From Mercenaria mercenaria (Eukaryota), in the NCBI RefSeq assembly GCF_021730395.1, contig NC_069364.1:83403972-83467971 (forward strand): 64,000 nucleotides of DNA, written 5' to 3'. Below are positions 6,276-63,465 of this stretch, one piece after another; positions within the stretch are counted from its first letter, which is position 1; the number at the start of each line of letters is the position of its first letter. The position numbers and the translations under genes were made by a program. A model generated the notes under the pieces. That model saw only the letters and a program-made list of their open reading frames with translations, made no database searches and was not told where the DNA came from.

Positions 6276-6396
6276 ACTCTCATATAGCCCCTTAAACTTC
6301 ATTTTGTGGAAGTTTAATAATGACTTTGTTACATGTGTATGAGGTATATCATATTGGCCCAAGAATTCTAGTGCAATATAAACATAAAATAGGTAC

Positions 6397-7733: not shown

Positions 7734-8002
7734 AAATATGAAAACATTTTTGTATTATTTGCTACATTATTTTGTGACCTTCGGCCACACATCACAGAAA
7801 ATTAGAGATATTGGTGGCATCTGATGTAGAACTTCAACAATCCTGTTTCGTATCCAGCAATATCTTTATAATGGTGGAAGGCGAAAATAATATAGATTAA
7901 TCCTTCCAATTAATCTTGTTTATTCTGGCTAAATTCCAATTTAATTGTTTGTTTGTAATTTTGCATCGGTTGTCATAACGCTAAGTCGTTGCTATGGAAT
8001 GT

Positions 8003-20575: not shown

Positions 20576-21246
20576 ACTCAGGTATGAAAAGATTACACGT
20601 GCATGTCTGACTATATAATTTTTTCCCCTTAAAAGCATACTGTTTCTTGTCATCTTATTATTAGGGCAGTATGGTTTACCATACCCGACACATAAGAAAT
20701 GCTAAAAATCGAAAACAGCTACAACTTCCTCATGAATATGTTTCAAAACGTACAAATACGTGTGTCTAATTTTTTGTGGTAATCCCTGATTTTTAGATAA
20801 CATTTGCAATGACAAATCTTACACTACCACTCATGATTCCTTAGCTGAAGTGCTTATTTCAATTCGAAAACATTTTAGGTAAATATACACTCAACTAGAA
20901 CATAAAGTAGGAATTAAACAAGCATTTGAATGAGATCTTGCATGTTCACTAATTACCAACAGTTCACGAATACTCCAACCCATTATACCTTTATAGGGGC
21001 TAGCCTCGAATGAATATCTGCATATCAAATATCATGTTTATTCAACTTTGTATCTTAAGATTAAGAAGATTAGTAGTTATTTTTCTGTAGTATTGCATCC
21101 ATTTTAACTAACTTTTTAAAAACACTTTTTAGAGTTTTTCTGTTAACATATTTTATAGACTTTGCAATGTGTTTGAATGAATAAATGTTGCCTGAATTTT
21201 CCAGAATCACGATAAGTATCTTTCCTTTTTATCAAAAACTGCTTAC

Positions 21247-22047
21247 CTTGTAAAGCCACTTGTGGTTCTTTAATTGCTCTTCCATCTGCTGCTGGCATTT
21301 TAGCTGAGTCTTTCACTGTCATTCCTTCTTTCTCTTCTGCTGTAAGTTCATCTAATTCAGCTTCAAGTTCAGCATGGTCATCCATCTTTGCCATGTCCAT
21401 ACTTATTGCCTCTGAAATGTCTGTGTCTGCATACACATCTTCATATAAACATACATCTTCACAGCCTTGTGCATAAAAGGCTGTGTCTGCACACACATCT
21501 TCTTCTAATAAATCTTCAGGTTCATAGGTTTCTGCATAAAACTCAGTCATACCGTAAGGTTCATCTGCCCTTGCTCCATCTGCACGCATAGCAGAACTAC
21601 TACTTTTCAAATAGCTGGAAATATCTGGAGCACCGAATTCAGCTGCCTTCCTGAATTTAGCTTTTGGCACTGCGCTAAATTTAACCATAGTAGGAGGACT
21701 TCCCTTGTCTCTATCTTCATCTCGTACAGCAGTTTTAGCTTTTGTCACTGGCCCAACAACTCCATTTCTTGTTGTTTCAGTAGACTGACCAGTGCTAGAA
21801 TATCGGTTATACATGTATCTGACACCAGCATCATATTCAAACAGGCTAAATCCCATTTCTTCCTCTGATTCTTCACTCTCACTATCTGCTGCTTTCATAA
21901 CCTTATCAGCTGAAGAAACTTTCTCCAAAGTTTTCATTTTCACATGATCTTCTGACACTTTTCTAGGACTTGAATCATCTGATTTAAGATATTCTACTGC
22001 TGATGATGATTGTAAATAAAATGGAGATAGTGATTCACATTCGGATT
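21247..22047 (-). CDS. Internal coding exon (801 nt, phase 0 to phase 0) of an acidic, low-complexity protein. The product is not recognised.
   Basis: On the minus strand the acceptor TTTCATTTCAG lies at 22048-22058 and the donor CTTTACAAG|GTAAGCAG at 21246. The ORF 21143-22111 is open across the whole interval and is rich in D/E/S, e.g. EESEEEMGFSLFEYDAG, EDLLEEDVCADTAFYAQGCEDVCLYEDVYADTD. Confidence 0.45.
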
Positions 22048-22319
22048 CCTGAAATGAAATAAAGAACAGAGGTTTACAGTCTGAATGCTCCACTCTTATG
22101 TAATTATACAAAGAACAAGCATCACCCCAGCATTAGAAGTCCCCTGCTGAAGAGAGCATGTCACATTTGCTGCCACTGGAACAAATTAATTAATTAATTA
22201 TATATAGATTTTTTTCATATTTAAATTAAAGTTCAGGACATGCATATTCTGAAAATAACCCATACACTATTCGCCAAGTTTCATGAAAACATCTCTTGTA
22301 CTTTTAAAGTAAATGTAAA

Positions 22320-27714: not shown

Positions 27715-29897
27715 AACAAGAGGGTCATTGACCCTAAAGCGCTCACCTGTGTAATAAGGCTTCAAGTATGTTTATGTAACATTCTGGTACAAGTACAAAG
27801 TTAGATTTCTTCTGCTAGCATAATAAAAGTATATACATGTTACAAACATTTTTGAACTTAGGGCAATAATTTTAACAATTATGGTAGACAGTACAACTCT
27901 GATATCACATGCCAAATATCAAGACTCTAACTATTATTGATTCAGAGAAGAAGATTTTTAAAATTTCTTATATATAAGCCTACAGTTAGTACATGTCACG
28001 CACAGGGGCATGGACATTTTTTACCTTAGGGCAATAATTTGGACAATTATGGTAGAGAGTCACACCCTTATATCACATGCAAATATCAAAGCTCTAGAGA
28101 GAAAGATTTTAAAAGTCTAATAGCTGAAAACCTATTTCTAACCAAAAAGACCCATATGTTCAATGAACTAGAACCATTTGAACAACTTTAAAAGAGGGCT
28201 ACCCAGAGATCATTTGTGTAAAGTTTCATCGAAATCCATTCAGTGGTTTTGGAGGAGATGTGTTGATGAAAAATGACCACGCCCTCTGGCGGTCATGTTT
28301 TTTAACGAATCAAAAAATTTTGAACATTATTTGTAGAAGGTCACACAAGGACCATTAAATTTTGTGTAAAATTATTTCAAAATTGGGCTAACAGTTTTCT
28401 ACAAGAAGTTTCTCCTATATACAAATAGGCAAAAGTGACCACGCCCCCTGGCAGCCATGTTTTTTGACAAATCAGAATAATTTGAACAATCTTGGGAAAG
28501 GGTCACACAAGGACCATTTGTGTAAAAAAATTTTAAAATGGGGCCAACAGTTTCACACAAGAAGATTTTTAATGTTTCCACTATATACATATACAGGGAA
28601 AAGTAACCACGCCCTCTGACACCTATGTTATTTGACAAATCAAAATAATTTGAACAATCTTGGCACACAAGGATCATTTGTGTAAAATTAGTTTAAAATC
28701 GGGCCAGCAGTTTCACACAAGAAGATTTTTAAAATTTCTACTATATACATATAGGGAAAAGTGACTACTAGACAATGCATCATACCAAATATCAAAAGCC
28801 TAGGTCGTATGGTTTCAGACAAGAAGATTTTTTAAGCTTTTTTCTATATAAGTCTATATAAAACTTGGGACCCCCAGGGCAGGGCCTCTTTTCACCCAAA
28901 GGGTACAATTTGAACAAATTTGGATGAGGACCATAAGACAATCCTACAAACCAAATATCAAAGGTCTAAGTGTTGTGGTTTCAGACAAGAAGATTTTTAA
29001 ACTTTTTTTCCTATATAAGTCTATGTAAAACTTGGGACCCCCGGGACAGGGCCACATTTGACCCTAGAGGGATAATTTTAGAACAATCTTGGTAGAGGAC
29101 CACTAGATGATGCTACACACCAAATATCAAAGCCCTAGGCCATGTGGTTTTGTACAAGAAGATTTTCAAAGTTTTCCCTATATAAGTCTATATAAAGCAT
29201 GTGACCCCCGGGGCAGGGCCATATTTGACCCTAGGGGGATAATTTGAATAATCTTGGTAGAGGACCACTAGATGATGCTACCCACCAAATATAAAAGCCC
29301 TAGGCCATGTGGTTTTGTACAAGAAGATTTTCAAAGTTTTCCCTATATAAGTCTATATAAAGCATGTGACCCCCAGGGCAAGGCCATATTTGACCCTAGG
29401 GGGATAATTTGAATAATCTTGGTAGAGGACCACTAGATGATGCTACATACCAAATATCAAAGCCCTAGGCCATGTGGTTTTGTACAACAAGATTTTCAAA
29501 GTTATCCCTATATAAGTCTATATAAACCATGTGACCCCCTGGGTGGGGCCATATTTGACCCTAGGGGGATAATTTGAACAATTTTGGTAGAGGACTACTA
29601 GAAGATGCTATACATCAGATATCAAAGCCCTAGGCCTTGTGGTTTTGGACAAGAAGATTTTTAAAGTTTTTCCTTTCGGTTGCCATGGCAACCAGAGTTC
29701 TGCTTGGAATTCAATTCTTTTAATAAATTTTGTAGAGCTTCACCCAAGGAACATTCCTGTGAAGTTTGGATGAAATTGGCCTAGCGGTTTATGAGGAGAT
29801 GTCGTTTAAAGTAAAAGTTTACGGACAGACAACGGACGACGGACGAAGTGCGATCACAAAAGCTCACCTTGTCACTCCATGACAGGTGAGCTAAAAA
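27715..29897 (+). mobile_element. HINE. 5' CAAGAGGGTCATTGACCCTAAAGCGCTCACCTGTG, arrays of two related monomer families (125-155 bp, 27900-29700), a conserved pre-terminal segment (29690-29820), a microsatellite, and the terminus ..GCGATCACAAAAGCTCACCTTGTCACTCCATGACAGGTGAGCTAAAAAC
   Basis: Both termini are read. Monomers include ..AAGAAGATTTTCAAAGTTTTCCCTATATAAGTCTATATAAA.CATGTGACCCCC.GGGCAGGGCCATATTTGACCCTAGGGGGATAATTTGAA.AATCTTGGTAGAGGACCACTAGATGATGCTACA.ACCAAATATCAAAGCCCTAGGCC.TGTGGTTTTG.ACAAG. Confidence 0.55.
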
Positions 29898-39109: not shown

Positions 39110-40760
39110 CAAGAAGTCAATAGGGGTCAGGAGCAAAAAGTCAAAGAGACACTGATGGTTGGCTGCAATAGGGATCATCTACTTGGCATGTCCAGTCATC
39201 CCGCTAAATTTCAACACTCTTGGCCTAGTGGTTCTCAAGTCACTGTTCAGGCTCCTGTGACCTTGCCCTTTGATCAAGTGACCTCAAAATAAATAGGGGT
39301 CATCTACTCTGCATGTCCAATCATCCTATTAAGTTTCAACATTGTAGGTCAAGTGGTTCTCAAGTTATTTCCAAAAAATGATTTTACATGAACAGGCCAC
39401 TGTGACCTTGACCTTTAATAGACTGACCCCAAAATCAATAGTGGTCATCTACTCTGCATGTTCAATCATCCTATGAAGTTTCAACATTCTGGGTCAAGTG
39501 GTTCTCAAGTTATTGATCGGAACTGGTTATCAATGTTCAGGCCTCTGTGACCTTGACCTTAACGGAGTGACCCCAAAAACAATATGGGTCATTTACTCTG
39601 CATGAACAATCATCCTATGAAGTTTCAACATTCTGGGAAGAGAGATTCTCAAGTTATTGATTGGAAATGGTTTTCCATGTTCAGGCCCCTGTGGCCTTGA
39701 CCTTTAACAGAGTGACCCTAAAATCGTTAGGGGTCATCTACTCTGCATGACCAATCATCCTATGAAGTTTCATCATTCCAGGTCAAGTGGTTCTCAAGTT
39801 ACTGACCGGAAATGGTTTTCAATGTTCAGGCCCGTGACCTTGACCTTTCACAGAGTGACCCCAAAATCGTTAGTGGTCATCTACTCTGCATGACCAATCA
39901 TCCTATTAAGTTTCAACATTCTGGGTCAAGTGGTTCTCAAGTTACTGACCGGAAATGGTTTTCAATGTTCAGGCCCCTGTGACCTTGACCTTTAATGGAG
40001 TGACCCCAAAATCGATAGGGGTCATCTATTTTGCATGTACAATCATCCTATGAAGTTTCAACATTCTGGGTCAAGTGGTTCTCTAGTTATTGATCGGAAA
40101 TGGTTTTCCATGTTCAGGCCCCTGTGACCTTGACCTTTGATGGAGTGACCCCAAAATCAATAGGGGTCATCTACTCTTCATGACCAATCATCCTATGAAG
40201 TTTCAACATTCTGGGTCAAGTGGTTCTCTAGTTATTGATTGGAAATGGTTTTCAATGTTCAGGCCCCTGTGACCTTGACCTTTGACGGAGTGACCCCAAA
40301 ATCAATAGGGGTCATCTGCTCTTCATGACCAATCATCCTATGAAGTTTCAACATTCTGGGTCAAGTGGTTCTCTAGTTATTGATCGGAAATGGTTTTCAA
40401 TGTTCAGGCCCCTGTGACCTTGACCTTTGACGGAGTGACCCCAAAATCAATAGGGGTCATCTACTCTTCATGGCCAATCATCCTATGAAGTTTCAACACT
40501 CTGGGCCAAGTGGTTCTCTAGTTATTGATCGGAAATGGTTTTCAATGTTCAGGCCCCTGTGACCTTGACCTTTGACGGAGTGACCCCAATAACAATAGGG
40601 GTCGTCTACTCCAGCAGCCCTACAACCCTATGAAGTTTGAAGGTTCTAGGTCAAATGGTTCTCCAGTTATTGCTCGGAAATGAAGTGTGACGAACGGACC
40701 GACGGACGGACGGACAGGGCAAAAACAATATGTCTCCTGGAGGAGACATAATAAAACAGG
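39110..40760 (+). mobile_element. Hairpin-terminated array of about eleven copies of a 145-bp CAATAGGGGTCAT family monomer (highly homogeneous at 39800-40600), followed by a (GACGGACGG)n microsatellite (40690-40715) and the terminal hairpin ATATGTCTCCTGGAGGAGACATAAT (40722-40750)
   Basis: CCTGTGACCTTGACC recurs at 40121 and 40266, a period of 145. Copies differ by only a few bases. The microsatellite-plus-hairpin ending matches those at 3826-3887, 18335-18422 and 48320-48405. Confidence 0.6.
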
Positions 40761-45486: not shown

Positions 45487-46406
45487 TGCAAAATGCAATC
45501 ATTGAAGTCACATGGCATTGTGGTCATATGGCAACTTTCCAGCTTAAACATTTGAGGAAAATCCCAGGGGACCCTTTACAGGGCCGCTGGGTAAAACCAA
45601 AAGCCTTTCACAAACAAACAGTATAGTTTCTTCAACAAAAATATCAGTGGTAACCTCAACCATTCAGCCTTATATAATTCATCAAAAACAAACACATAAC
45701 TATAACTATGAACCAATATAAATTCTTTCAACCTAGTACCATTAATGCTCCCAGTGAGTCTATTGTCACCTTTTATTTTTTGTGTTTACCTTAGTAAGAT
45801 GCTATCATAATTATTTTTAAATAAAAAAAACATTTTTCATTTACCTATAAAACCAATGAAATGTTATAGCAAATGTACAAACACAGTCATGATAACAAAT
45901 ATATTTAAGGCCAATCCACCTATTATTAGCTTGCAAACAAAAGCTTTAGCAAAATTTTCTGAGATGAAAAAGGGACATAAATTTGCATGAGTATTGTTAA
46001 CTAGAGCTATGAAACTTGCCATATGAGGTCATATTGAAATGCCGGGAGACATACATGCAAAACTTTCACATAATTTCTATATTAAAAGGGGACATGATTT
46101 TGATAAAATAAAAAGAGTTATGTAGCTTGTCCTATGAGTTTATCTCATAAGGCCAAACACAAATGTTGAAAAAATTTGACCTAGTGGTTTCTGACAAACC
46201 TGTTTACAACCGAGTAAAACTTATTATGCAGACGCCAACACCAACAAAAGGGTGGCAACAAGACTGTAATATTTGAAAAGTTTAGTTGCACTAAAAAATT
46301 GGTAACACTTTAATTTAACATGATAACTAACACTATATATACTATCATAAAATGTGTAGTTAACATTTGGCTATATCAACAGATTTCAAATCAGAAAAAT
46401 CAATAC

Positions 46407-46510
46407 CTTTACATCAGCTATAGTACTGCAGGCATCCAAATCCATACTAACTGTCTTCCCCGTCAATGTTTTGACAAATAAGTGAGAAGTCTTCTGCGTT
46501 TTTGGATTCC
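46407..46510 (-). CDS. Coding exon encoding the N-terminal third of the same ubiquitin-like domain, ..[34 protein letters not shown]. It has no initiator Met, so the domain is internal to a larger protein.
   Basis: Acceptor CTATTTAG| and donor [37 protein letters not shown] aligns to ubiquitin [25 protein letters not shown]. The intron position between VK and A(L/K)IQDKEG is phase 0 on both sides. Confidence 0.5.
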
Positions 46511-46619
46511 CTAAATAGTAAATTAATTTAAAAAACATTAAACACTGCTTTTAATAACAAGAGATCACAGAGTGATCTTGGCGCCCACCAATGTGCCATT
46601 TTTGAGTGTTCCAAATTTC

Positions 46620-47560
46620 AAGACTTACTGACTAGCTCAAGGTCAAATTTCATTTCCGTACACAACACTGTGCATGTGGTCCAAATTCAAAAGCTGTAGC
46701 TTGAGATGTGAAAGTAGGTCACTAGATCAATTTCAAGGACAAAGTTCTTTGTACACAAAACTATGCATGTGCATCAAGTTTGAAGGCTGTAGTTTGAGAA
46801 ATTTGAAAGTAGGTCACTAGGTCAATCTTAAGGTCACAGTTTATTTTGGTACAAAAAACTATGCAAGTGGTCCAAATTTGAAGGCTGTAGCTTGAGAAAT
46901 GTGAAAGTAGGTCACTAGGTCAATGTCAAAGTTTGTTTCGGTACACAATCCTATGCATGTGGTCTAAATTTGAAGCCTGTAGCTACAGAAATGTGAAAGT
47001 AGGTCACTAGGTCAATCTTAAGATCAAAGTTCATTTCAGTACACAAAACTAAGCAAGTGGTCCAAATTTGAAGGCTGTAGCTCGAGAAATGTGAAAGTAG
47101 GTCACTAGGTCAAAATCAAGGTCAAATTTTATTTCGGAACACAGAACTATGCATGTGGTCCAAATTTGAAGCCTGTACCTTCAAAAATGTAAAAGTAGGT
47201 CACTAGGTCAATGTAAAGGTCAAAGTTTGTTCGGTACACAAAACTATGCAAGTGGTCCTAATTTGAATTTGAAGGCTGTAGCTCGATAAATGTGAAAGTA
47301 GGTCACTAGGTCAAAATCAATGTCAAATTTTTTTGACACAGAACTATGCATGTGGTCCAAATTTGAAGCCTGTACCTTCAAACATGTGAAAGTAGGTCAC
47401 TAGGTCAATGTAAAGGTCAAAGTTTGTTTCGGTACAAAAAACTAAGCATGTGGTCCAAATTTGAAGGCTGTAGCTTGAGAAATGTGAAAGTAGGTCACTA
47501 GGTCAAAATCAAGGTCAAATTTCATTTCGGAACACAAAGGTCAACTCATGTCAAGGTTCA
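46620..47560 (+). repeat. Tandem array of about eight copies of a 121-bp monomer (..AAAGTAGGTCACTAGGTCAAT.T.AAGGTCAAAGTT..TTTCGGTACACAAAACTATGCA.GTGGTCCAAATTTGAAGGCTGTAGCT.GAGAAATGTGA..)
   Basis: Direct repeats are read. They are diverged at the 5' side and homogeneous toward 47500. Confidence 0.65.
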
Positions 47561-48405
47561 TCTTGCCTCTCAAAACCATACATGTGGTCCAAATTTGAAT
47601 ATTGTAGGTTACTGACAAGAAGATTTTAAAAGCTTTTCCCTATATAAGTCTATATGAACCATGTGACCCCCGGGGCGGGGCCATATTTGACCCTAGGGGG
47701 ATAATTTGACCAAACTTGGTAGAGAACCACTAGATGATGCTACATAACAAATATCAAAGCCCTAGGTTTTGTGGTTTGGGCAAGAAGATATTCAAAGTTT
47801 TTCCCTATATAAGTCTATGTAAACCATGTGACCCCCGGGACGGGGCCATATTTGACCCTAGGGGGATAATTTGAAAAATCTTAGTAGAAGACCACTAGAT
47901 GATGTCACATACAAAATATCAAAGCTCTAGGCCCTATGGTTTTGAACAAGAGGTTTTTCAAAGTTTTTCCCTATATAAGTCTATATAAACCATGTGACCC
48001 CCGGGGCGGGGCCATATTAGACCCCGGGGAAATAATTTGAATCATCTTGGTAGAGGACCACTAGATGATGCTTCATACCAAATATCAAAGCTCTAGGCTC
48101 TGTGGTTTTGGACAAGAAGATTTTCAAAGTTTTTCCCTATATAAATCTATGTAAATTATAGAAATAAACAAAGGGCCATAACTCACTAAAAAATTGTTGA
48201 ACCAGTCTGATTTTCAGAGGGACACAACTAGAGTACCAATACATCATTCTGACAAAGTTTGGTCAAAATGCCCCTGGTAGTGTCTGAGGAGATGCGATAA
48301 CGAGAAATTGTTAACGGAAGGACGGACGGACGGACAGACGGAAGGACGTCGGACCACAGACGCAGAGTGATTTGAATAGCCCACCATCTGATGATGGTGG
48401 GCTAA
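47560..48405 (+). mobile_element. Hairpin-terminated element 3' portion. About four copies of the 155-bp monomer (ATATTTGACCCTAGGGGGATAATTTGA family), a unique pre-terminal segment, a (GGACGGAC)n microsatellite (48318-48352), and the terminal hairpin TAGCCCACCATCTGATGATGGTGGGCTA (48378-48405)
   Basis: Read directly. The hairpin has a perfect 12-bp stem. Confidence 0.5.
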
Positions 48406-48418
48406 CAATGTGTGTGTC

Positions 48419-48680
48419 CAAATAAGATAAATTATTTTCAATTAAAAATAATTTGATTTATTTATTCAAGAAATACTTGTTATGCTCGTTGCCATGGTCA
48501 CACGGTTATCTCTCGGTCTTTTCTTATAACTGGTTCCCGTCTTTCTGACTAATACGAATTACACATAATTACTGGGCCGAGAACAATCTTAATAACGGCT
48601 TATAAAAGCAAAAAACACGTGCAGCCTTTCTCACTTACGTCGTAGTCTACCTGTAAAGAACATCGAACTTACAACTTTTC
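48419..48680 (+). repeat. Ngaro-like element terminal repeat A1 (A2 copy at 54104-54365)
   Basis: 262-bp direct repeat, 259 of 262 identical. Confidence 0.8.
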
Positions 48681-48729
48681 TTCTGCTACGTATATATATA
48701 TATATACTAGTAAATCTACTCGGATTCTA

Positions 48730-49890
48730 ATGCCGCGTGGGCGTGTTAGACAGCGAGGCGGCAGGGCTAGGGCAGGAAGGCCAGCCAGGGCAAACAGAAA
48801 TGCCGACGGCCAGCAGAATGAAGCAGGCGGCCAGCAGAATGAGGCAGAACGAGGCAATAACCATCCAAACACCCGCGGGCAGAAACGAAGAGCCGATGAC
48901 CTTGAGCACGCTGAAAGGACACCGGCACGTGGTCTGGCAGAGCCATCAGATATAGATGACGGAGGCAATATACTGTTACAGGAAAATGCCGGTGGGTCTA
49001 ATTTTATTGATTTTGAACAGGTTTTTCGTAGTTCAGGTCTTATGTCTTGTAACGGTAATGAGACTAGTTCAAGGTCAAATAGTACTTCTAATATAGGATT
49101 TGACAATGGACACGACAAAAATGTACCTCTGCCACCCCGTCAGATCAATGAAACGTGTCAGAATGCCTCCTTTAATCATAACTTTCCATCCGTTCGTTTA
49201 TCAAATGATGATTTGACTGCACATGTACCATCATCGTTAAAACAACAAATCTGTCGTGGAGAATACGTTAATCTGGCCTTACTCTTAAAAGGGGCTATCG
49301 AACTGTCTGAATTTTGTAAGGGTAGTGTTTTCAAACTCTCGGCGGATGGCCACATTGAGTCATCTCATAAAGAGTGCAAAGATAAAATTACATCTAGAGA
49401 AAAATGGACCAATGCATTTATAATTTATGCTTCCATTTACCTTCCGACACATAGTGATAAAGTTCACGAGTTACTTCACTATATGTTTAACATATGGGAC
49501 TGTGCAATGCGCCAAGGGGGCAACGGGTGGAGAATTTATGATGAACAATTTCCCCTTTGCCAGGCTATATGTCCGTCCCCATGGTCACAAACAAATAACG
49601 AACTTTGGTGGCGATGTATACAGGTCAAAGATAATCAGTCTGCAAATCAGTCAGTTATAAATCCTCTCAGGTACACGTGCCATGATTTTAACAGAGGTAG
49701 TTGTTTCTGGTCAAACTGTAAATATCCTCATATATGCGCAAAATGTTTTGCACCACATCCTGAGGTCACCTGTTCCCAGTCCGGTTCTTCAGGTCAAGGT
49801 CAAATGACAAGCCCTCAGTTTAATTTTCGTGGCAGGGGCTTTCGCCGACCGTTCAGAGGACCTAAACGAGGTCAACCAAGAAAACAGTAA
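48730..49890 (+). CDS. ORF1, a putative Gag-like protein of 386 aa with a basic N-terminus and a Cys/His cluster (CHDFNRGSCFWSNCKYPHICAKCFAPH)
   Basis: It is the first ORF of the element and overlaps ORF2 in a different frame, as is typical of DIRS-order elements. It was not recognised by specific motif beyond the zinc-knuckle-like Cys/His spacing. Confidence 0.5.
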   Translation: MPRGRVRQRGGRARAGRPARANRNADGQQNEAGGQQNEAERGNNHPNTRGQKRRADDLEHAERTPARGLAEPSDIDDGGNILLQENAGGSNFIDFEQVFRSSGLMSCNGNETSSRSNSTSNIGFDNGHDKNVPLPPRQINETCQNASFNHNFPSVRLSNDDLTAHVPSSLKQQICRGEYVNLALLLKGAIELSEFCKGSVFKLSADGHIESSHKECKDKITSREKWTNAFIIYASIYLPTHSDKVHELLHYMFNIWDCAMRQGGNGWRIYDEQFPLCQAICPSPWSQTNNELWWRCIQVKDNQSANQSVINPLRYTCHDFNRGSCFWSNCKYPHICAKCFAPHPEVTCSQSGSSGQGQMTSPQFNFRGRGFRRPFRGPKRGQPRKQ

Positions 49891-51586
49891 AACTGTAAGC
49901 TTTAACTCAACAAACAGCCCATCAGTTCAACAGCTCACCAATTTTGATATTTCTAATTTGGCAAAATCACCAGTAAAAGTGGAAGCCTTGAAACAATATG
50001 CACTCTTGTACGAAACCAGTGAATCTAAGTTTTTACTAGACGGTTTTACGAAAGGATTTTCCATTCAGTACACAGGTCCTCGCTTACCACGAGATTCAAA
50101 TAATTTGCGTTCTGTTACACTCAGTCCGGAAATAATAAAATCTCAAATTAATAAAGAGTTAGAAGCAGGAAGAATAGCTGGTCCATTTGTTCATCGCCCA
50201 TTTCCTAATTTAATAGTTTCACCGATAGGCTTAGTTCCTAAAAAAACACCGGGAGAATTCCGAATGATTCATCATTTGTCACATCCCCCTGGCGGTTCAA
50301 TTAATGACTTTATTGACCCAGATTTATGCTCTGTCCAATACACTAGCTTCGACAAGGCAGTTAAGTTAGTTCAAGATCTAGGACGAAATTGTAAACTTTT
50401 CAAGTCGGACATTAAAAGTGCATATCGTTTAATACCGATTCACCCCGATGATTTTGAATTACTGGGATTTTGCTATGATGGTCATTTTTATTTTGACAAA
50501 GCGCTCCCGTTTGGGGTATCAATAAGCTGCATAACTTTTGAAAGGTTTGCTAGGTTTCTTGAATTTTGTGTTAAATTAAAACTACAGTCAGATAGCTTGA
50601 TACACTATTTAGATGACTTTCTAGGGGGAGACAAATCTGTTGAATCATGTACTCGTGCTTTAGAAATTTTTAAAAGTACAATGTCTGAACTTGGTGTGCC
50701 TTTAGCGCTCGACAAAACTGAAGGCCCTACAGAGGTTTTGATCTTTTTAGGCCTAGAACTAGATTCAAACCATATGACGGTAAAAATTCCTATAGCAAAA
50801 ATGCAGGAGGTTATACAAAAAATCGAAGAAATTCTTTCACGAAATAAAACAACATTAAAGAAAATGCAGTCTCTCATTGGGTCATTAAACTTTTGTTGCA
50901 GAGCCATAGTAGTGGGTAGGCCTTTTATACGCCGACTAATAAACTCAGTTTGTGGTCTCACGAAGCCTTTTCATCGCATTCGAATTAAAAAAGAGATACG
51001 GCTTGATTTGGCAATGTGGTTAGTTTTTCTAAAAAAATTTAACGGTATCTCTGTTTTTCATGACCGTTATTGGATCACGAACACCGATACAGAGTTATAC
51101 ACTGATAGTGCGGGTGGCAAGGGATTAGGCTTTGGTATATACTTCAAAGGCCATTGGTGTTCGGCGAAGTGGCCGGACACGTGGCACACGTGCGGCATCA
51201 CGTCAGATATAACAGTACTGGAATTGTTCCCGATTTTGGTAGCTATATTCATTTGGGGAAAGGATCTGATGAATAAAAAAATAAGATTTAACAGCGATAA
51301 TATGGCTGTGGTTCACATTCTTAACAAATTATCCTCTAAATCAGAACGAGTTATGTGCATTGTCAGGATATTAACGTTGAGATGTTTTAACTTGAATATT
51401 TTAATCAAAGCCTCTCATGTCCCGGGTTGTAGCAATGAAATCTGCAACGCTTTATCTCGCTTTCAGTTGAACAAGTTCAGAGAATTAGCTCCAGACGCAG
51501 ACGTCAGCCCCCATTCAATACCAACTTTTCTATGGGACATCTTCGATCTAGAGCTAGACAACTGCTTCTGTCAGGGATTTCAATGA
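49829..51586 (+). CDS. ORF2, reverse transcriptase plus RNase H, 585 aa
   Basis: RT motifs IVSPIGLVPKK, FRMIHHLSHP, FKSDIKSAYRLIPIHPDDFELLGF, ALPFG and HYLDDFLGG are present. The RNase H region has YTDSAGGKGLGFG..ELFPILVA..NSDNMAVVHIL..ASHVPGCSNEICNALSR. Confidence 0.85.
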   Translation: MAGAFADRSEDLNEVNQENSKTVSFNSTNSPSVQQLTNFDISNLAKSPVKVEALKQYALLYETSESKFLLDGFTKGFSIQYTGPRLPRDSNNLRSVTLSPEIIKSQINKELEAGRIAGPFVHRPFPNLIVSPIGLVPKKTPGEFRMIHHLSHPPGGSINDFIDPDLCSVQYTSFDKAVKLVQDLGRNCKLFKSDIKSAYRLIPIHPDDFELLGFCYDGHFYFDKALPFGVSISCITFERFARFLEFCVKLKLQSDSLIHYLDDFLGGDKSVESCTRALEIFKSTMSELGVPLALDKTEGPTEVLIFLGLELDSNHMTVKIPIAKMQEVIQKIEEILSRNKTTLKKMQSLIGSLNFCCRAIVVGRPFIRRLINSVCGLTKPFHRIRIKKEIRLDLAMWLVFLKKFNGISVFHDRYWITNTDTELYTDSAGGKGLGFGIYFKGHWCSAKWPDTWHTCGITSDITVLELFPILVAIFIWGKDLMNKKIRFNSDNMAVVHILNKLSSKSERVMCIVRILTLRCFNLNILIKASHVPGCSNEICNALSRFQLNKFRELAPDADVSPHSIPTFLWDIFDLELDNCFCQGFQ

Positions 51587-52423
51587 ATTCAAGGCTAACA
51601 TATAATACTGCCTTTCGGGCATTTGAAAATTTTAGGCGGTTATACAATCTTTCAGACAGTTGGCCTATACCAGAACAACAAATCACTTTATTTATGGCTT
51701 ATTGTTTCGAAAAAGGGTTGTCACCCAAGACAATCACGAGGTATATAGCTGGGCTAAATTATTTTCACAAACTTTCTGGATATTATGATATAACCCAGGT
51801 TTTCATTGTTAATAAATTACTAGAGGGTTGCCATAGGAACCGTATCACACATGATAACAGAGCCCCACTAACTCTGCCTATTTTGACATCTATTTGCAGA
51901 GTTCTAAGAGAAATATGCTTCAATGCGTATGAAACAAAACTGTTTACTTCGCTCTTTACTTTAGCATACTTTGGATTGTTCAGGGTTAGCGAATTAGTTG
52001 TCTCCTTTAGGGGACAATTTGATGGGCCCATTAAACGATCAGATTTGTTCGTGATTGATAACCAATATCTTACAATTCAACTTCGGCATAGTAAAACAAA
52101 CCAAAGGGGAAAACCGACTAAAACTACCCAGAGAATCTGGGCCTGTCTGTGCAGTGCAAGCATTAACAGATTTCTTGGCCGTAAGACCAAAAAATGAAGG
52201 AATATTATTTTGTCATCAAGAAGGCACCCCAGTTACCAGAACTCAATTTTCAGCCATTCTGTATAAATGTCTGAGTAAAAATCAAATTACTGGTACATTT
52301 AAATCGCATAGCTTTAGAATTGGTCGGGCTACAGACCTGGCAACTAGGGGTTATTCAGCGAGTGTAATTATGAAACTTGGTAGATGGAAATCTAATTGCT
52401 ATAAAGTATACATCCGAACGTAA
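51532..52423 (+). CDS. ORF3, tyrosine recombinase, split over two frames (51532-52197 and 52055-52423) by an apparent one-nucleotide frameshift near 52105-52120
   Basis: YR hallmarks are LFTLAYFGLFRVSELV, IQLRHSKTNQRG, then after the frame change ..SGPVCAVQALTDFL..HSFRIGRATDLA..GRWKSNCYKVYIR, which gives the R..H..R..Y catalytic signature. The join falls in the GGGGAAAACC run. Confidence 0.75.
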
Positions 52424-52584
52424 TTCTACAGTAAAGAGATGTTTTCCCACTCTTAACTGTATCAGCGGACAACATTTTTTAAAAGTGCATTGAAGTCAGT
52501 TCTTCCTGGTAGTTATTCCGTTTAAAGCGAATTTTCCACATTTAAGGTATTCTTGTCAATTCCATCTAATAACTATTTGTAGAT

Positions 52585-53139
52585 GTGTGGGTCCTGGGAG
52601 ATTCAATACCGTTCTGGGCTGGTAAACGAGCAGCAGACACCGGTAAACCCAACCTTTCGTTACCCGATATAACTATAGCTTGGTGGGGAATAAGCGGACT
52701 TCGATGGACATCATTTCGCCATTCAGTACAGACTCAAGTATTACTGTCATCGCCACCAAGGGCTATCATCTTACATTTAGGTGGTAACGATTTGACAAGT
52801 TTATCTTCTATCGAGCTAAGGGAGTTAATAGAGACAGAAGTGAAATATCTACGCGATGCCTTCCCCGAGACAATTATCATTTGGGTAGATATTTTACCAA
52901 GGAGGGTCTGGAGGGGGGCCTGTAATCTCAAAGCTATTGACGTCAAACGCAAACGAATAAATAGATCGGGCCGGATTATTACAAGTCGGTCTGGCAGGAG
53001 TGATATAGTGAGCCCAGATATTGATACGGCTACTAATTTTTTCAGATCTGACGGGGTCCATTTAAATGAGGTGGGGTTGGAGTTTTATCTGTACTATTTG
53101 AAATCTGCCATAATAAAAAATCTCTGTGCGTCTCAATAA
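52585..53139 (+). CDS. ORF4, an SGNH/GDSL-family hydrolase-like protein of 184 aa
   Basis: Block I VLGDSI (GDS), block III LHLGGNDL (GGND) and block V DGVHLN (DxxH) occur in the correct order and spacing. Its position after the YR ORF matches the hydrolase-like ORF reported in some Ngaro elements. Confidence 0.65.
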   Translation: MWVLGDSIPFWAGKRAADTGKPNLSLPDITIAWWGISGLRWTSFRHSVQTQVLLSSPPRAIILHLGGNDLTSLSSIELRELIETEVKYLRDAFPETIIIWVDILPRRVWRGACNLKAIDVKRKRINRSGRIITSRSGRSDIVSPDIDTATNFFRSDGVHLNEVGLEFYLYYLKSAIIKNLCASQ

Positions 53140-53171
53140 TAATTTTGGGGGATAAATTGAAATTTATTGTG

Positions 53172-54110
53172 GCGGTAAAATTTTTATTGGCCGGAAGGTG
53201 ACCAGGCGTTGCAGTTTCTATGAAGTAAATTTAACAAGTTATTGTTATTTACAATTTCCAATTTCGCTTACTTCGGAATATGGGCGTGACTTCTCTCCTC
53301 GATGGCATTCTATTTTGCGTTCAAGAGGAGACATAGCCGTCCGTATTCGGATTTTTCTATCTTATTTCGCAGGTCACTACTTTATGTAAGCTGTTATTGT
53401 TACTCTGAGTCACCAGGTTATTTCAATGGTTGTCAACTGGACTGTTGCTTCTGGTTACTTGTTTACTTATTGTTGTCGACCCGAATGTTGCTTCGGGTCA
53501 CTAAGTAGTGGTAAACTCGAATGTTGCTTCGGGTTTGTTTGTAGTCTGTCGTTGACCTGAATGTTGCTTCGGGTCACTAGGTCTGGCCCATGTAGTTTTG
53601 GTAAGGCCTAGTCGACGTGTTTGCTGCCAGTAACGCATTACAGGTTCTACCGGCATACCTCGTATCGAGCTGGTAGTGTGATTATGGGTCCTTTGCTTTC
53701 AAGGTTGGTACCGATTCACGGTACGGTCAACTTGGAAGCTGGGGTCTATGACTGCACGATCAGTGGGACTCCTTTGGTAATGCGACACGTAGCAATTGAT
53801 GCCATTAGTAATATTTTCAAAGGTGACTCGGCGACCGGGATCCTTTTGGCAATTTCACTTGTAATGTTTGGCACGCTTGCAGGTCCCTTCCGGTCGATGA
53901 GCTAGCTACCAAATTTGAGCAGCCGACACAACCAAACTTATTAATTTGAAATGATATGAATATACATGTAATTCGTAAGCAATATTTCAAGGTTTTATTA
54001 TCACGTACCTATATCTATTTGAATATATTGTCGGTACAGATTGGTGACATGTTTAATAAATTTAGAGAAGGCTGTATGTATTGTTTTTTATTTCGAGTAA
54101 TATCAAATAA
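53172..54110 (+). repeat. Ngaro-like element repeat B1 (B2 copy at 55000-55935). It contains three tandem GAATGTTGCTTCGGGT hairpin-forming motifs (53470-53585).
   Basis: Roughly 939-bp direct repeat, about 99% identical. It is noncoding, and the ORFs listed inside it are repeat artefacts. Confidence 0.8.
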
Positions 54111-56264
54111 GATAAATTATTTTCAATTAAAAATAATTTGATTTATTTATTCAAGAAATACTTGTTATGCTCGTTGCCATGGTCACACGGTTATCTTTCG
54201 GTCTTTTCTTATAACTGGTTCCCGTCTTTCTGACTGATACGAATTACACATAATTACTGGGCCAAGAACAATCTTAATAACGGCTTATAAAAGCAAAAAA
54301 CACGTGCAGCCTTTCTCACTTACGTCGTAGTCTACCTGTAAAGAACATCGAACTTACAACTTTTCCCCGCCCGCCTCAGCCCGCAAAAGCTACCATATTT
54401 TTGATTAATAAGATTGTTTCACCTATACTATACCATGTGATAACTATTTTTGGTCAGGAATTGCTGTTGGTTGTATATATTTTCAGGATACCATATTTCA
54501 AATTTCTGTTGTATCAATGTTGAATTCTGACGGTGTCACCAACTCATGTACCCAGAGCCATAAGACGAATGCAATTCAGATGTGAAAACAGTATATTGTT
54601 ATGAAGACTGTGATTTTATCAAATAAACGGTTACAGGCGCCTTAGCGGTACATGGAATTAATGCTGATGTGAACAGTCATTTGTAATATACTTATTTAGT
54701 GTGAACACTGATTCATTGGAAGTGATTTGTCAGTTAATGATCATAGTGCTCGGGTATTTGTTTGTTCTTATTACACATTTTATGTGCATTTATATCGTGT
54801 GACATTTTGTGCTAGCTTAATGGGACAATTATTTGACATTACATGTATACTAAGCAGCATAATTCTGGACATTTAGTGTATTTACTTCATGAAGACGTAA
54901 TTCTATGCCTAAATAATATAAATGTATGTATATAAAGAGTCGGACAGTCTATCTTAAGGTTTCATTCATATATGTCGCTCTATTTATATGTTGTATATTG
55001 CGGTAAAATTTTTATTGGCCGGAAGGTGACCAGGCGTTGCAGTTTCTATGAAGTAAATTTAACAAGTTATTGTTATTTACAATTTCAAATTTCGCTTACT
55101 TCGGAATATGGGCGTGACTTCTCTCCTCGATGGCATTCTATTTTGCGTTCAAGAGGAGACATAGCCGTCCGTATTCGGATTTTTCTATCTTATTTCGCAG
55201 GTCACTACTTTATGTAAGCTGTTATTGTTACTCTGAGTCACCAGGTTATTTCAATGGTTGTCAACTGGACTGTTGCTTCCGGTTACTTGTTTACTTATTG
55301 TTGTCGACCCGAATGTTGCTTCGGGTCACTAAGTAGTGGTAAACTCGAATGTTGCTTCGGGTTTGTTTGTAGTCTGTCGTTGACCTGAATGTTGCTTCGG
55401 GTCACTAGGTCTGGCCCATGTAGTTTTGGTAAGGCCTAGTCGACGTGTTTGCTGCCAGTAACGCATTACAGGTTCTACCGGCATACCTCGTATCGAGCTG
55501 GTAGTGTGATTATGGGTCCTTTGCTTTCAAGGTTGGTACCGATTCGCGGTACGGTCAACTTGGAAGCTGGGGTCTATGATTGCACGATCAGTGGGACTCC
55601 TTTGGTAATGCGACACGTAGCAATTGATGCCATTAGTAATATTTTCAAAGGTGACTCGGCGACCGGGATCCTTTTGGCAATTTCACTTGTAATGTTTGGC
55701 ACGCTTGGTCCCTTCCGGTCGATGAGCTAGCTACCAAATTTGAGCGGCCGACACAACCAAACTTATTAATTTGAAATGATATGAATATACATGTAATTCG
55801 TAAGCAATATTTCAAGGTTTTATTATCACGTACCTATATCTATTTGAATATATTGTCGGTACAGATTGGTGACATGTTTAATAAATTTAGAGAAGGCTGT
55901 ATGTATTGTTTTTTATTTCGAGTAATATCAAATAATGCTTCATTTACACAGAAAGATATCTAGCCATATCACAAAGGTATTTCTGTTTTTTGCTCTTGCA
56001 GCCCCTAAAAGGTGCTTAAGTGTCCCAAATTTGAATAAATTTGAGAGAGGACCTTACAATGATGCTACAGACAAAATTTGACGAAGATCCATCAAGCGGT
56101 TCATGAGAAGAAGTGGTTTAAAGGTTTTTTCTAATTTTAGCCCTAGCGGCACCTTAAAGGGGCCAAGTGCCCTCATTTAAACAATTTTTGGGAAAGCATC
56201 TTACAAAATTATTCTACAGACAAAGTTTCATGAAGATCCATTAAGCGGTTCATGGCCAGACAAA

Positions 56265-57115
56265 ACAAGAGCACTGCCTTGCGGGTGCTGACGCTCATCT
56301 GATTTTTTTTGTATAATAGAAATATTGTCCTACCTATGATTTTCTAAGTCTAAAAAGGGCCATCATTCTTGCAAAAAGCTGGATAGAGTTATGTTTCTTG
56401 ATGTACAGCATTCGCTTATGATGATGAAAAACTGTTGCAAGTTTTAAAGCAATAGCTTTGATGGTTTATGAGAAAAGCTGACTTAAACATAATACTCAAC
56501 CAAGAAAACTGATTTTCTAAGTCCAAAAGGGGTAATAACTAAAAGCAGGACGGAGTTATGTTTCTTGATGTACAGGGTCAGCTTATGATGGTAAACAAGT
56601 GTTGCAAGTTTCAAAGCAATAGCTTTGATAGTTTATGAGATAAAGTTGACCTAAACATAAAACTTAACCAAGAAATCTGATATTTTCTAAGTCCAAAAGG
56701 GGCCATAAATCTTGCAAAAAGCAGGATGGAGTTATGTTTCTTGATGTACAGGGTCAGCTTATGATGGTGAACAAGTGTTGCAAGTTTTAAAGCAATAGCT
56801 TTGATAGTTTAGGAGAAAAGCTGACCTAAATATAAAACTTAACCAAGAAAACTGATTTTCTAAGTCCAAAAGGGGAAATAATTCTTGCAAAAAGCAGGAT
56901 GGAGTTATGTTTCTTGATGTACAGGGTCTGCTTATGATGATGAACAAATGTTGCAAGTTTCAAAGCAATAACTTTGATAGTTTTGGAGAAAAGCTGACCT
57001 AAACATAAAACTTAACCAGGCAACGCCGACGCCGACACAGACGCCGACGCCGATCAAGTGATGACAATAACTCATCATTTTTTTTCAAAAAATCAGATGA
57101 GCTAAAAATGACCTA
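56265..57115 (+). mobile_element. Complete small HINE. 5' CAAGAGCACTGCCTTGCGGGTGCTGACGCTCATCTGA, about five copies of a 145-bp monomer (..AAAAGCTGAC.TAAACATAAAACTTAACCAAGAAA.CTGATTTTCTAAGTCCAAAAGGGG..AATAA.T...GCA..A.GGA.GGAGTTATGTTTCTTGATGTACAGGGTC.GCTTATGATGGT.AACAA.TGTTGCAAGTTT.AAAGCAATAGCTTTGATAGTTT..GAGA), a (GCCGAC)n microsatellite (57030-57060), and the terminus ..AATCAGATGAGCTAAAAA
   Basis: The 5' and 3' termini carry the complementary 11-mers GCTCATCTGAT and ATCAGATGAGC, a subterminal inverted repeat that parallels GCTCACCTG and CAGGTGAGC in the main family. Confidence 0.55.
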
Positions 57116-57650
57116 GTATATTTGACCTTTATGAGTGATATTGATCTTTGAGACAGGGTCCTGGGTCTTGCATGGCATGTCATCTCATTATGGGGAACAT
57201 TAGTGCCAAGTGATTGTAGTATCTCTTGATGAAAGGTAGTTTTTGACCAGAAATGAAACAGATCCTCTTAAGTTTTGACTTCAAAATGTAACCTTAATCT
57301 CTGAGCTAGGTGTCTGGGTCTTCAACGCATCCATGCAAAGTAACCAGACACAAAACAGACCCTAATAACATTTGACATCCCAAGTATGACCTTGACCTTG
57401 GAGTTGGGGTCTGGATCTTTTGTGCGAAACGTTGTCTCAACATTTGTGCCAAGTAATTTCAAAATCCCTTGATGAATGGCACAGCTGTGGACTGGACATG
57501 ACACAGACCTGTTAACCTTTCACCTCCAAGTGTGTTCATGACCTTTGAGCTAGGGGTCTTTGTCTTGTGCAACACAGGTTGTCTCCTTAATTGAACATTT
57601 TTGCCAAGTTATTTTAAAATTCCTTCATGGTTGGACACAGCCCACTTCTT
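57115..57650 (+). repeat. About four diverged copies of a roughly 135-bp monomer of the GACCTTTGAGCTAGGGGTCT..GTGCCAAGT.ATTT.AAAATCC.T.GATGA family (same family as 3218-3830)
   Basis: Shared motif blocks with the array at 3218-3830. Confidence 0.45.
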
Positions 57651-58464
57651 TTCCCCTTTTTTGTTTCTCAAAAGGTGGGGAACAACTGAAATTACAAACA
57701 TTTAGTCTACAGGATTTAAGGAAAAGCCCTCTATTGTAACTGTCACATACTAAAAACATGTAGTAATTAAATATCAAGTTAAGGTAGTTCTTCACATCTG
57801 CTAAATAGAGTAATGATGCAGCAGCTTCTGACTGGAAAACATAGAGTAAAACCTGGACCAAGCATACAGTAAGGAAAATTGGCCAGATGTAGAGGTCATC
57901 CTGTGTTTGCATTTAGGAAAGCATTAAAATTACTTTCGCATAAGATAAAAACAACAAAAAATTGCTGTCACACGAAACAATTCCAAAATGCCCTCAAATC
58001 AACTTAAAACTTGCTGATCTATTAAATTACAGGTAAATATCTATAAGATATGGACAGACAAATTTTATTTGATCAGACAATGTTGCTTTTCAACAGTGAA
58101 AAGTTTCATTAAAATCTTCCCTGTGAAAAAAATTTAATTGCAAAAATGTCATTAAAATTGTAGAGACCTATTATGCATTCCCCTTTGAAGACATACAGTA
58201 GTATTGCTAGTCCCTTTAAAGATATGTATAATATCAGACCATGGCTGATGAATAATGATATGTATAGAAAACCTGTATTTCAAGATCACCTGTGAACAGG
58301 GACCCCCTAGCTATCAAGAACAATAGAATCATTTCAAACAGATTCAAACACTTCAAGTACCCTTTCATTTCTGAATAAAGACCATATGCATTTGACCTCT
58401 CAGCTGACCTCAAAAGTATTTTTTTTATGTACACTCGGGTTTTTCTGCACACAACAGTTCTTAC

Positions 58465-58540
58465 CTATTCTTTGAGTTCCAAATGCCTGACTGAAGTCAA
58501 CTTTATCATCCAGGTCCCAGCTGTCAAATGCTTCTTCAAG
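58465..58540 (-). CDS. Candidate coding exon encoding LEEAFDSWDLDDKVDFSQAFGTQRI, ending in phase 1
   Basis: Acceptor TTTTGATTCTAG| and donor AGAATAG|GTAAGAAC. The frame is open throughout. Confidence 0.35.
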
Positions 58541-61566: not shown

Positions 61567-63465
61567 CAAGAGGACCATGATGGTCCTGAATCGCTCACCT
61601 GTCCCCACATGACCCAGTTTTGAACTGAGTACGACGTTGTTTTTTTCTATTATTTGACATAGTGACCTAGTATTTGAGCTCATGTGACCCAGTTTTGAAC
61701 TTGACCTAGATACCGAGATAAAAATTCTGACCAAGTTTCATGAAGATCCATTGAAAAATATGGCCTCTAGAGAGGTCACAAGGTTTTTCTATTATCTGAC
61801 CTAATGACCTAGTTTTTGACTGCACGTGACCCACTTTCGAACTGGACCTAGATACCATCAAGGTGAACATTCTCACCAATTTTCATGAAGATCTCATGAA
61901 AAGTACGGCCTCTAGAGAGGTCACAAGGTTTTTCTATTTTTAGACCTAATGACCTAGTTTTTGACCACACGTCATCCACTTTCGAACCTGACCAAGATAT
62001 CATCAAGGTGAACATTCTGACTAATTTTCATGAAGATCCATTGAAAAATAAGGCCTCTAGAGAGGTCACAAGGTTTTTCTATTTTTAGACCTACTGACCT
62101 AGTTTTTGACCGCATGTGACCCACTTTCAAACCTGACCTAGATATCATCAAAGTGAACATTCAGACCAACTTTCATGAAGATCCATTGAAAAATATGGCC
62201 TCTAGAGAGGTTACAAGGTTTTTCTATTTTTAGACCTAATGACCTAATTTTGGACCGCACGTGACCCAGTTTCAATCTTGGCCTAGATATCATCAAGGTG
62301 AACATTCTGACTAATTTTCATGAAGATCCATTGAAAAATATGGCCTCTAGAGAGGTCACAAAGTTTTTCTACCTTTAGACCTACTGACCTAGTTTTTGAA
62401 AGCACGTGACCCAGTTTCGAACTTGACCTAGATATCATCAAGATGAACATTCTGACTAATTTTCATGAATATCCATATAAAAATATGGCCTCTAGGGAGG
62501 TCACAAGGTTTTAGTAATTTTAGACCTACTGACCTAGTTTGACTGCACGTGACCCACTTTCGAACATGGCCTAGATATCATCAAGATGAACATTCTGACC
62601 AATTTTCATGAAGATCCATTGAAAAATATGGCCTCTAGGGAGGTCACAAGGTTTTTCTATTTTTAGACCTACTGACCTAGTTTTTGACCGCATGTGATCC
62701 ACTTTCGAACATGGCCTAAATATCATCAAGATGAACATTCTGACTAATTTTCATGAAGATCCATTGAAAAATATGGCCTGTAGGGAGGTCACAAGGTTTT
62801 TCTATTTTTAGACCTAATGACCTAGTTTTGGACCGCACGTGACCCAGTTTCGAACTTGACCTAGATATCATCAAGATGAACATTCTGACCAATTTTCATG
62901 AAGATTCATTGAAAAATATGGCCTCTAGAGAGGTCACAAGGTTTTTCTATTTTTAGACCTACTGACCTAATTTTGGAAAGCACGTGACCCAGTTTCGAAC
63001 TTGACCTAGATATCATCAAGATAAACGTTCAGACCAACTTTCATACAGATCCCATGAAAAATATGGCCTCTAGAGAGGTCACAAGGTTTTTCTTTTATTT
63101 GACCTACTGACCTAGTTTTTAGTGGCACGTGACCTAGTTTCGAACTTGACCTAGATATCATCAAGACGAACATTCTGACTAACTTTCATGAAGATCCACT
63201 GAAAAATATGGCCTCTAGAGAGGTCACAAGGTTTTTCTATTTTTAGACCTACTGACCTACTTTTTGACCGCAGTTGACCCAGTTTCGAACTTGACCTAGA
63301 TATCATCAAGATGAACATTCTGACCAACTTTCATAAAGATCCCATGAAAAATGTGACCTCTTGAGTGGTCACAAGCAAAAGTTTACGCACGGACGGACGG
63401 ACGGACGACGGACGCTGCGCGATCACAAAAGCTCACACTGTCACATTGTGACATGTGAGCCAAAA
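61567..63465 (+). mobile_element. Complete HINE of about 1.9 kb. 5' ACAAGAGGACCATGATGGTCCTGAATCGCTCACCTGTCCCCACATGACCC, about eleven copies of a 145-bp monomer, an (ACGGACGG)n microsatellite (63385-63415), and the terminus GCGATCACAAAAGCTCACACTGTCACATTGTGACATGTGAGCCAAAAAG
   Basis: Both termini are present. The monomers are the same family as at 1-800, 14390-15060 and 23280-26180. The terminus is nearly identical to 860-910. Confidence 0.7.

Follow-up and report, generated by a model that had tools for sequence, protein, structure and literature searches.

The present analysis indicates that positions 48419-55935 of a 64-kb stretch of the genome of the clam Mercenaria mercenaria (RefSeq assembly GCF_021730395.1, contig NC_069364.1; hereafter the window, meaning all 64,000 nucleotides analysed) are very probably one integrated copy of a Ngaro-like tyrosine-recombinase retrotransposon of the order DIRS. 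The element is about 7.5 kb long, and four forward open reading frames (ORFs) follow its left repeat in the order A1-ORFs-B1/A2-spacer-B2 (Table 1). It is a new copy of a type already known in molluscs and annotated in M. mercenaria, and its classification is routine. The main value of the comparison lies in its by-products, namely candidate cis-elements, a reason why the 3' ORFs have no start codons, and a link between the esterases of Ngaro elements and those of long interspersed nuclear elements (LINEs).

Split direct repeats and classification

Repeats were detected by comparing the region 46000-58500 with itself and the element with the whole window, and exactly two pairs, A and B, were recovered. 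The two A copies, 262 bp each, differ at three positions, all of them transitions, and 5,423 bp separate the end of A1 from the start of A2. The B copies, about 939 and 936 bp long, differ by five substitutions and one 3-bp indel (GCA, 53879-53881). Chance cannot account for repeats of this length (262 and 939 bp) at about 99% identity. No further copy of A or B occurs elsewhere in the 64-kb window; therefore, both repeats are specific to the element and are not flanking satellites. The flanks consist of unrelated short tandem arrays with units of 98, 166 and 173 bp. Self-comparison of the element region returned no pair of inverted repeats. The heptamer CAAATAA is the overlap between the end of B1 and the start of A2, and it also opens A1 and closes B2.

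Much of this layout had been given in a preliminary description of the same DNA. Its two 262-bp A copies with three differences, the CAAATAA on which B ends and A begins, and the lack of TG..CA ends all stand, the ends reading CAAATAA...CAAATAA. The B length of about 939 bp was likewise correct; its count of about six differences and a 4-bp indel gave way to the figures above on recounting. It had also raised the possibility that A and B were flanking satellites, which their restriction to the element within the window speaks against.

The plan A1-ORFs-B1A2-spacer-B2 is shared by five full-length relatives, two of them from Ruditapes philippinarum (L002 and L008) and the others from an ENA bivalve-like assembly (L004), Dreissena polymorpha (L007) and the squamate Rhineura floridana (L009). 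Their repeats are 93-100% identical. Three related loci (L001, L003 and L006) show no split repeats and were excluded from the architecture comparison. Reviews draw B1A2B2 as contiguous (PMC8547959, PMC7192593), whereas the clam element and its five relatives have a spacer of 234-799 bp between A2 and B2 that starts with a C-rich box. Thus, the spacer appears to be general among these relatives, and the contiguous drawing would be a simplification. As all relatives have one, the idea that the spacer is a private insertion of this copy was rejected. Within repeat B of the clam element, about three tandem units of about 78 nt were observed, each with a CCCGAA-TGTTGC-TTCGGG hairpin (53429-53582 in B1 and 55257-55410 in B2), and the Dreissena relative also has internal short tandem repeats in B.

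The reverse transcriptase (RT) of the window and five bivalve homologues were added to the published alignment of Ribeiro et al. 2019 (supplement 16; PMC6681497), and a neighbour-joining tree of 51 RTs was built with 200 bootstraps. The window RT fell inside the Ngaro-like clade, consisting of Ngaro elements, the window and the bivalve homologues, in 191 of the 200 bootstraps, and the VIPER clade was separate in all 200. The nearest references were the sea urchin elements LvNgaro2 (56% identity) and LvNgaro1 (55%). DIRS-like and PAT-like RTs matched it at 30% identity or less, those of Gypsy and BEL at about 23% and those of VIPER at about 13% (12-14%). Pfam detected no methyltransferase, protease or DDE integrase (rve) in the ORFs of the element. 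Ngaro elements are defined in the literature by split repeats downstream of the recombinase, the absence of a methyltransferase and, optionally, an extra SGNH ORF (PMC9210276, PMC4157794, PMC8547959). The clam element fits this definition because its RT lies in the Ngaro clade, its split repeats lie downstream, a methyltransferase is missing and an SGNH ORF is present. These data agree with the earlier assignment to a Ngaro-like element of the order DIRS, and the proposed set of Gag-like, RT/RNase H (ribonuclease H), tyrosine recombinase and SGNH proteins was recovered, the Gag-like one by its position and the others by Pfam, fold and profile searches. The same description had called this combination unusual, which it is not for Ngaro: the Xenopus element DIRS-53_XT has gag-like, RT/RNase H, tyrosine recombinase and SGNH ORFs, the same four as the clam element (PMC9210276).

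Compared with known systems, the element shares its RT clade, the order A1...B1A2...B2 downstream of the recombinase and the lack of a methyltransferase with the Ngaro elements of sea urchins (LvNgaro1/2, SpNgaro3), the Pacific oyster (DIRS-6_CGi, DIRS-7_CGi) and Xenopus (XtNgaro2, DIRS-53_XT). It differs from DIRS-53_XT in the length of B, which is 939 bp compared with 152 bp (PMC9210276), and from Ngaro as described in that its downstream ORFs are apparently expressed by splicing. PAT-like elements (PAT, Kangaroo, SkowPat) also combine split direct repeats with a tyrosine recombinase, but they have a methyltransferase and their RTs group with DIRS-like ones, whereas the clam RT is 21-28% identical to them and lies outside the DIRS and PAT group. 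DIRS1-like elements belong to the same order and likewise encode a tyrosine recombinase, and their ends are believed to be rebuilt from an internal copy of the junction; unlike the clam element, they have inverted terminal repeats, an internal complementary region and a methyltransferase. RTs of VIPER-like elements group with kinetoplastid VIPER/TATE, apart from the clam RT.

Coding capacity, putative spliced expression and condition of the copy

ORF1 is Gag-like by its position, and Pfam returned nothing meaningful for it up to E<=10. Its central domain and its C-terminal CCCH/CCHC-like Cys/His pattern are conserved in ORF1 of the distant relative L004. ORF2 lies in the +1 frame relative to ORF1, and a look-up of its exact sequence gave no hit. 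The profile-HMM check suggested in the preliminary description was run with Pfam; it identified RVT_1 in ORF2 and, in the two halves of ORF3, Phage_int_SAM_1 and Phage_integrase (E-values in Table 1). An AlphaFold model of ORF2 had a mean pLDDT of 81.7, and Foldseek aligned it with the RT-RNase H proteins of cauliflower mosaic virus (CaMV), Ty3, foamy virus and HIV-1 over 490-610 columns. The C-terminal part of the model follows the beta-beta-beta-alpha-beta-alpha-alpha-beta-alpha order of RNase H. The predicted structure thereby shows an RT and an RNase H fold in ORF2.

Several lines of comparison suggest that the recombinase and the esterase are made from spliced mRNAs. The annotated M. mercenaria protein P0121 (LOC123547335, 272 aa) opens with residues 1-87 of ORF1 and continues, after an Asp at the junction, with ORF4. 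It was reported as 99% identical to ORF4, the sole difference being the translation of the GTG start codon. Splicing 48991 to 52583 within the window reproduces P0121 except for two residues, both in exon 1. A donor at the same position is found in L001 (AAGCCG/GTAGGT; / marks the cut) and L008 (GAAGCGG/GTAAGT), and the esterase acceptor is also found in L001, L008 and L002. NCBI models of the recombinase that represent three other families (P0231, P0233 and P0259) begin with the same Gag N-terminal exon and join it just upstream of the recombinase, at a homologous point. From these sites, which agree with NCBI gene models of Mercenaria and Ruditapes, we infer one donor with two alternative acceptors, giving mRNAs for Gag-exon fusions of the recombinase and of the esterase. 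No description of splicing in Ngaro elements was found in the literature searched. The arrangement resembles retroviral subgenomic splicing, which also uses one donor early in gag and acceptors before downstream genes; it differs in that the clam products would be N-terminal Gag fusions to recombinase and esterase, as suggested by gene models and conserved splice sites.

ORF4 keeps the GDS, G, GGND and DGVH blocks of the SGNH esterases and has no ATG of its own, presumably because it is expressed from a spliced mRNA with a 5' Gag exon. As such splicing accounts for the missing ATG, the alternative that ORF4 is a dead ORF was rejected. A profile of 31 ORF4 homologues matched 4c1b best among solved structures (E=6e-11, full length), followed by the platelet-activating factor (PAF) acetylhydrolases at about 1e-5. 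The structure 4c1b is the esterase of the ORF1 protein of the zebrafish LINE ZfL2-1, for which a lipid role in retrotransposition has been proposed (PMC3905857). The CR1/L2 LINE ORF1 protein is thus another case of an SGNH esterase carried by a retrotransposon; there, the esterase is part of the LINE ORF1 protein, whereas in the clam element it is a separate 3' ORF that would be fused to a Gag exon. The profile match hints at an esterase module common to two unrelated retrotransposon orders, and a comparable lipid role for the Ngaro esterase can be guessed at by analogy.

Concerning the condition of the copy, the preliminary description had called it near-intact. This holds for the ORFs other than ORF3, which are open; the frameshift in the recombinase had been overlooked, and the RNase H carries a substitution at a catalytic position. 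ORF3 is divided into two overlapping ORFs by an indel of a length not divisible by three at about 52117, between a Pro codon (52114-52116) and a Leu codon (52118-52120). When the reading was repaired and compared with the homologue consensus, the catalytic R, K, H-x-x-R, W and Y were all present across the two halves. In ORF2, the RNase H motifs read D-E-D-(D>N): codon 540 (51446-51448, AAC) encodes Asn at the last RNase H carboxylate, a position where 90% or more of 60 homologues have the catalytic Asp. The conservation comparison also showed changes at three further highly conserved positions of ORF2. Because of the frameshift and the D540N change, the copy is probably non-autonomous and dependent on a helper, as judged from these lesions.

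It is unlikely, though it deserves weighing, that the copy is instead fully intact and autonomous, with the frameshift an assembly or sequencing error and Asn540 tolerated. Such a reading would suit a copy whose remaining ORFs are all open, whose repeats agree at 99% and whose esterase exon matches an annotated M. mercenaria protein at 100%, and the ORF3 frame would likewise be restored by one more base in the GGGG/AAAA runs (52106-52113) next to the lesion. In the homologue comparison, however, the best-fitting site of the lesion is the lone A52117, between the conserved Pro codon and an LKLP motif and outside the homopolymers, which leaves a homopolymer artefact as a weakened, residual explanation. 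The conservation of Asp540 among the homologues and the three further changes in ORF2 also count against an intact copy. The reading as a probably non-autonomous copy is accordingly preferred.

The annotation of a nearly identical protein shows that this copy has one or more sister copies or alleles in M. mercenaria. Pooled over A and B, the repeats differ at 8 of 1191 positions (0.67%), which at rates assumed to lie between 1e-9 and 1e-8 per site per year corresponds to an insertion age of about 0.3-3 million years. Repeat identity is a weak clock here, because under the split-repeat model of replication, as we understand it, each cycle would recopy no more than a portion of A and the tail of B.

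That the ORFs are host genes, domesticated or bona fide, of the kind deposited as "uncharacterized protein LOC..." would be suggested by the NCBI models for esterase and recombinase products in Mercenaria and Ruditapes. This is very improbable, as each genome holds many divergent paralogues, all flanked by split repeats, the homologues are scattered over thousands of short contigs, and the recombinase of this copy is frameshifted. Moreover, Ngaro elements make up 0.14-0.18% of the M. mercenaria genome, in about 1,750-1,800 fragments (PMC8905726).

Junction core, putative transcription signals and a possible replication cycle

The sequences at the junctions and ends of the retrotransposon were compared with those of its relatives. 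An AAATAA core is invariant in five of five aligned B/A junctions, and both ends of the copies, including the window element, carry 4-9 nt identical or nearly identical to the B/A core. The cores at both ends are 7 nt long in L008 and in the window element, and L002 is inserted within an (ATAA)n microsatellite. These end sequences fit strand exchange by a tyrosine recombinase inside a short region of homology. Among paralogous flanks within the window, no sequence spanning the insertion was found that would represent an empty site. ARAGORN and Rfam (E<=1) gave no tRNA gene or RNA family match in or around the element. In the left flank, a hairpin with an 11-bp stem (AGCCCACCATC TGAT GATGGTGGGCT) was observed at 48378-48403, 15 bp left of the insertion point. 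It comes after the 166-bp array and is preceded by a (GGAC)n-like tract at 48321-48348. As a guess, hairpin and tract resemble the end of a Helitron-like carrier or of one like a miniature inverted-repeat transposable element (MITE).

Putative transcription signals lie at similar places in the related elements. A1 contains a TATA box at 48601-48607 with an initiator-like TCACTT about 25 nt downstream. A TATA box stands 72-83 nt before the 3' end of A in four elements (the window element, L002, L007 and L008), and TCACTT follows it in the window element and L007. In B of the window element and its relatives, AATAAA or ATTAAA lies 56-70 nt before the end and is followed by a GT-rich tract; in the clam copy, these signals are AATAAA at 54055-54060 in B1, then a GT-rich tract, and AATAAA at 55880-55885 in B2, 56 nt before the end of the element. 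Given the positions of the TATA box and the polyadenylation signal, the RNA should therefore be without the 5' part of A and the tail of B. It is precisely these two parts that adjoin each other where B1 meets A2 inside the element.

The C-rich box directly 3' of A2 has a consensus of roughly CCCRCCCRCCACACCC, and it adjoins A2 in every full-length element from bivalves to the squamate. In each of the five elements that were scored, it ranks first or close to first among the 16-mers in C content, and the per-element probabilities multiply to about 2e-13 on the assumption that the elements are independent. That the box persists from clams to a lizard speaks for a function. The box is placed where a primer-binding site would be if B1A2 were a long terminal repeat (LTR); it has no TGG and no Rfam match. 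Pairing of the box within its own element was considered and found unsupported, the G-rich partners inside each element being weak matches (10-13 of 15-19 positions, with G-U allowed). Alternatively, it may represent a GC box together with a CACCC box, or a site for poly(C)-binding proteins. The primer for DIRS-1 cDNA synthesis is unknown (PMC7192593). If the box is a signal for minus-strand priming or strand transfer, it would bear on the priming step of reverse transcription in the DIRS order, and the comparison as a whole yields concrete candidate cis-elements for an order in which priming and integration are poorly known.

Least credible is an origin of the copy from an LTR retrotransposon by rearrangement, for example as an arbitrarily cut array of LTR-internal-LTR units, tandem or recombinant. 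B plus A (1.2 kb) would then be one unit, the layout would read partial LTR-ORFs-LTR-spacer-partial LTR and the C-rich box would occupy the primer-binding position. Against this, the RT lies outside the Gypsy, BEL/Pao and retroviral clades, a tyrosine recombinase is present while a DDE integrase (rve) and a protease are not detected, TG..CA ends are lacking, and the B|A point at which this copy breaks is precisely that of five independent copies from other genomes.

For the Ngaro-like retrotransposon, the following cycle may be proposed. RNA polymerase II would start at the TATA box and initiator of A1, read through B1, A2 and the spacer, and polyadenylate about 35-50 nt before the end of B2. 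The unspliced RNA would be translated into the Gag-like ORF1 and, in the +1 frame, ORF2. Splicing of the donor at 48991 to 51467 or 52583 would fuse the first 87 Gag residues to the recombinase or the esterase. As the RNA would be without the promoter part of A and the tail of B, reverse transcription could recopy both from the B1-A2 junction and give a circle with a B-A joint. Finally, the recombinase would exchange the AAATAA core of this joint with a similar genomic site, leaving the core at both ends with no true target duplication.

Several points weigh against this interpretation. The RNase H was detected neither by Pfam (E<=10) nor by a sequence-profile search of the PDB, in which the RT palm was the sole match for ORF2, and it was found by motif and fold only. 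The splice model rests on NCBI gene predictions and conserved GT/AG sites. A 7-bp target duplication, instead of core homology, could in principle explain the heptamer at both ends. B1 has the same polyadenylation signal as B2, so that read-through of B1 must be assumed, and all five steps from transcription to integration are what we infer from the arrangement of the element.

Taken further, the comparison raises the possibility, which we consider rather doubtful at present, that SGNH-bearing Ngaro elements from bivalves to squamates share a plan of replication and expression that is missing from current reviews. It would consist of an obligatory A2-B2 spacer, a conserved C-rich box at its start, an AAATAA core directing integration into AAATAA-like sites, and retrovirus-like alternative splicing from a Gag donor to the recombinase and to a LINE-related esterase.

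Table 1. Features of the element, its relatives and the surrounding window (positions of the window unless stated otherwise)
Feature	Position	Strand	Remarks
A1, left split direct repeat, 262 bp	48419-48680	+	99% identical to A2; putative promoter and short 5' leader
CAAATAA junction core, left end	48419-48425	+	same heptamer at 54104-54110 (B1/A2) and 55929-55935 (right end)
ORF1, Gag-like by position, 386 aa	48730-49890	+	basic N-terminus, central domain, C-terminal CCCH and CCHC-like pattern, basic tail
Putative shared 5' splice donor, ATGCCG/GTGGGT (/ marks the cut)	48991-48993	+	exon 1 ends at G48991, codon phase 1, after ...LLQENA
ORF2, reverse transcriptase and RNase H, 585 aa	49829-51586	+	RVT_1 E=9e-14; frame open from 49808
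Putative 3' acceptor of recombinase mRNA, CTTTATCTCGCTTTCAG then TT	51440-51466	+	exon start 51467; junction codon G+TT = Val
ORF3, tyrosine recombinase, frameshifted	51532-52423	+	two overlapping ORFs: 51532-52197 (Phage_int_SAM_1) and 52055-52423 (Phage_integrase, E=3e-10)
Branch-point-like CTAAT and putative 3' acceptor of esterase mRNA, TTTGTAG then AT	52555-52582	+	exon start 52583
ORF4 exon, SGNH/GDSL esterase	52583-53139	+	open frame 52585-53139; Lipase_GDSL_2 E=3e-6, below curated cut-off
B1, internal copy of repeat B, 939 bp	53172-54110	+	from repeat comparison
A2, internal copy of repeat A, 262 bp	54104-54365	+	from repeat comparison
C-rich box, CCCGCCCGCCTCAGCCCGC	54366-54384	+	directly 3' of A2; kept in all six full-length elements
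A2-B2 spacer, 634 bp, non-coding	54366-54999	+	between-family alignment fails except at the C-rich box
B2, right terminal repeat	55000-55935	+	from repeat comparison; putative polyadenylation region
C-rich box in relatives (positions of each locus)	L002 14330-14345; L004 14631-14648; L007 14158-14173; L008 15214-15229; L009 26805-26821		
Example tandem arrays of the window	23293-26191; 39240-40682; 61642-63375; 28763-29674; 47614-48155		

Deposited homologues and the surrounding window

The named RT homologues come from bivalves (Ruditapes, Dreissena) and from metagenome-assembled genomes (MAGs) of lucinid-clam symbionts. Proteins deposited under the bacterial MAGs Candidatus Thiodiazotropha and Sedimenticola, on contigs of 3-7 kb, were observed to be homologues of the RT, recombinase and esterase (P0016, P0040, P0043, P0060, P0068, P0090, P0093, P0103, P0179, P0185, P0270 and P0296), and the RTs among them are 54-61% identical to that of the clam element. 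They are most likely contamination by host retrotransposons, and such transposon proteins serve as a data-quality warning.

Outside the element, two long open frames on the reverse strand (21143-22111 and 6349-7795) have no Pfam match; one is acidic and Ser-rich, the other of low complexity and rich in Pro and Thr. Both may derive from exons of host genes or from degraded repeat copies. Short tandem arrays of 2-20 copies, with units of 145-173 bp, crowd the window throughout and fill 37 rows of Tandem Repeats Finder (TRF) output. The 166-bp tandem family to the left of the element was found again at 28.7-31.1 kb.

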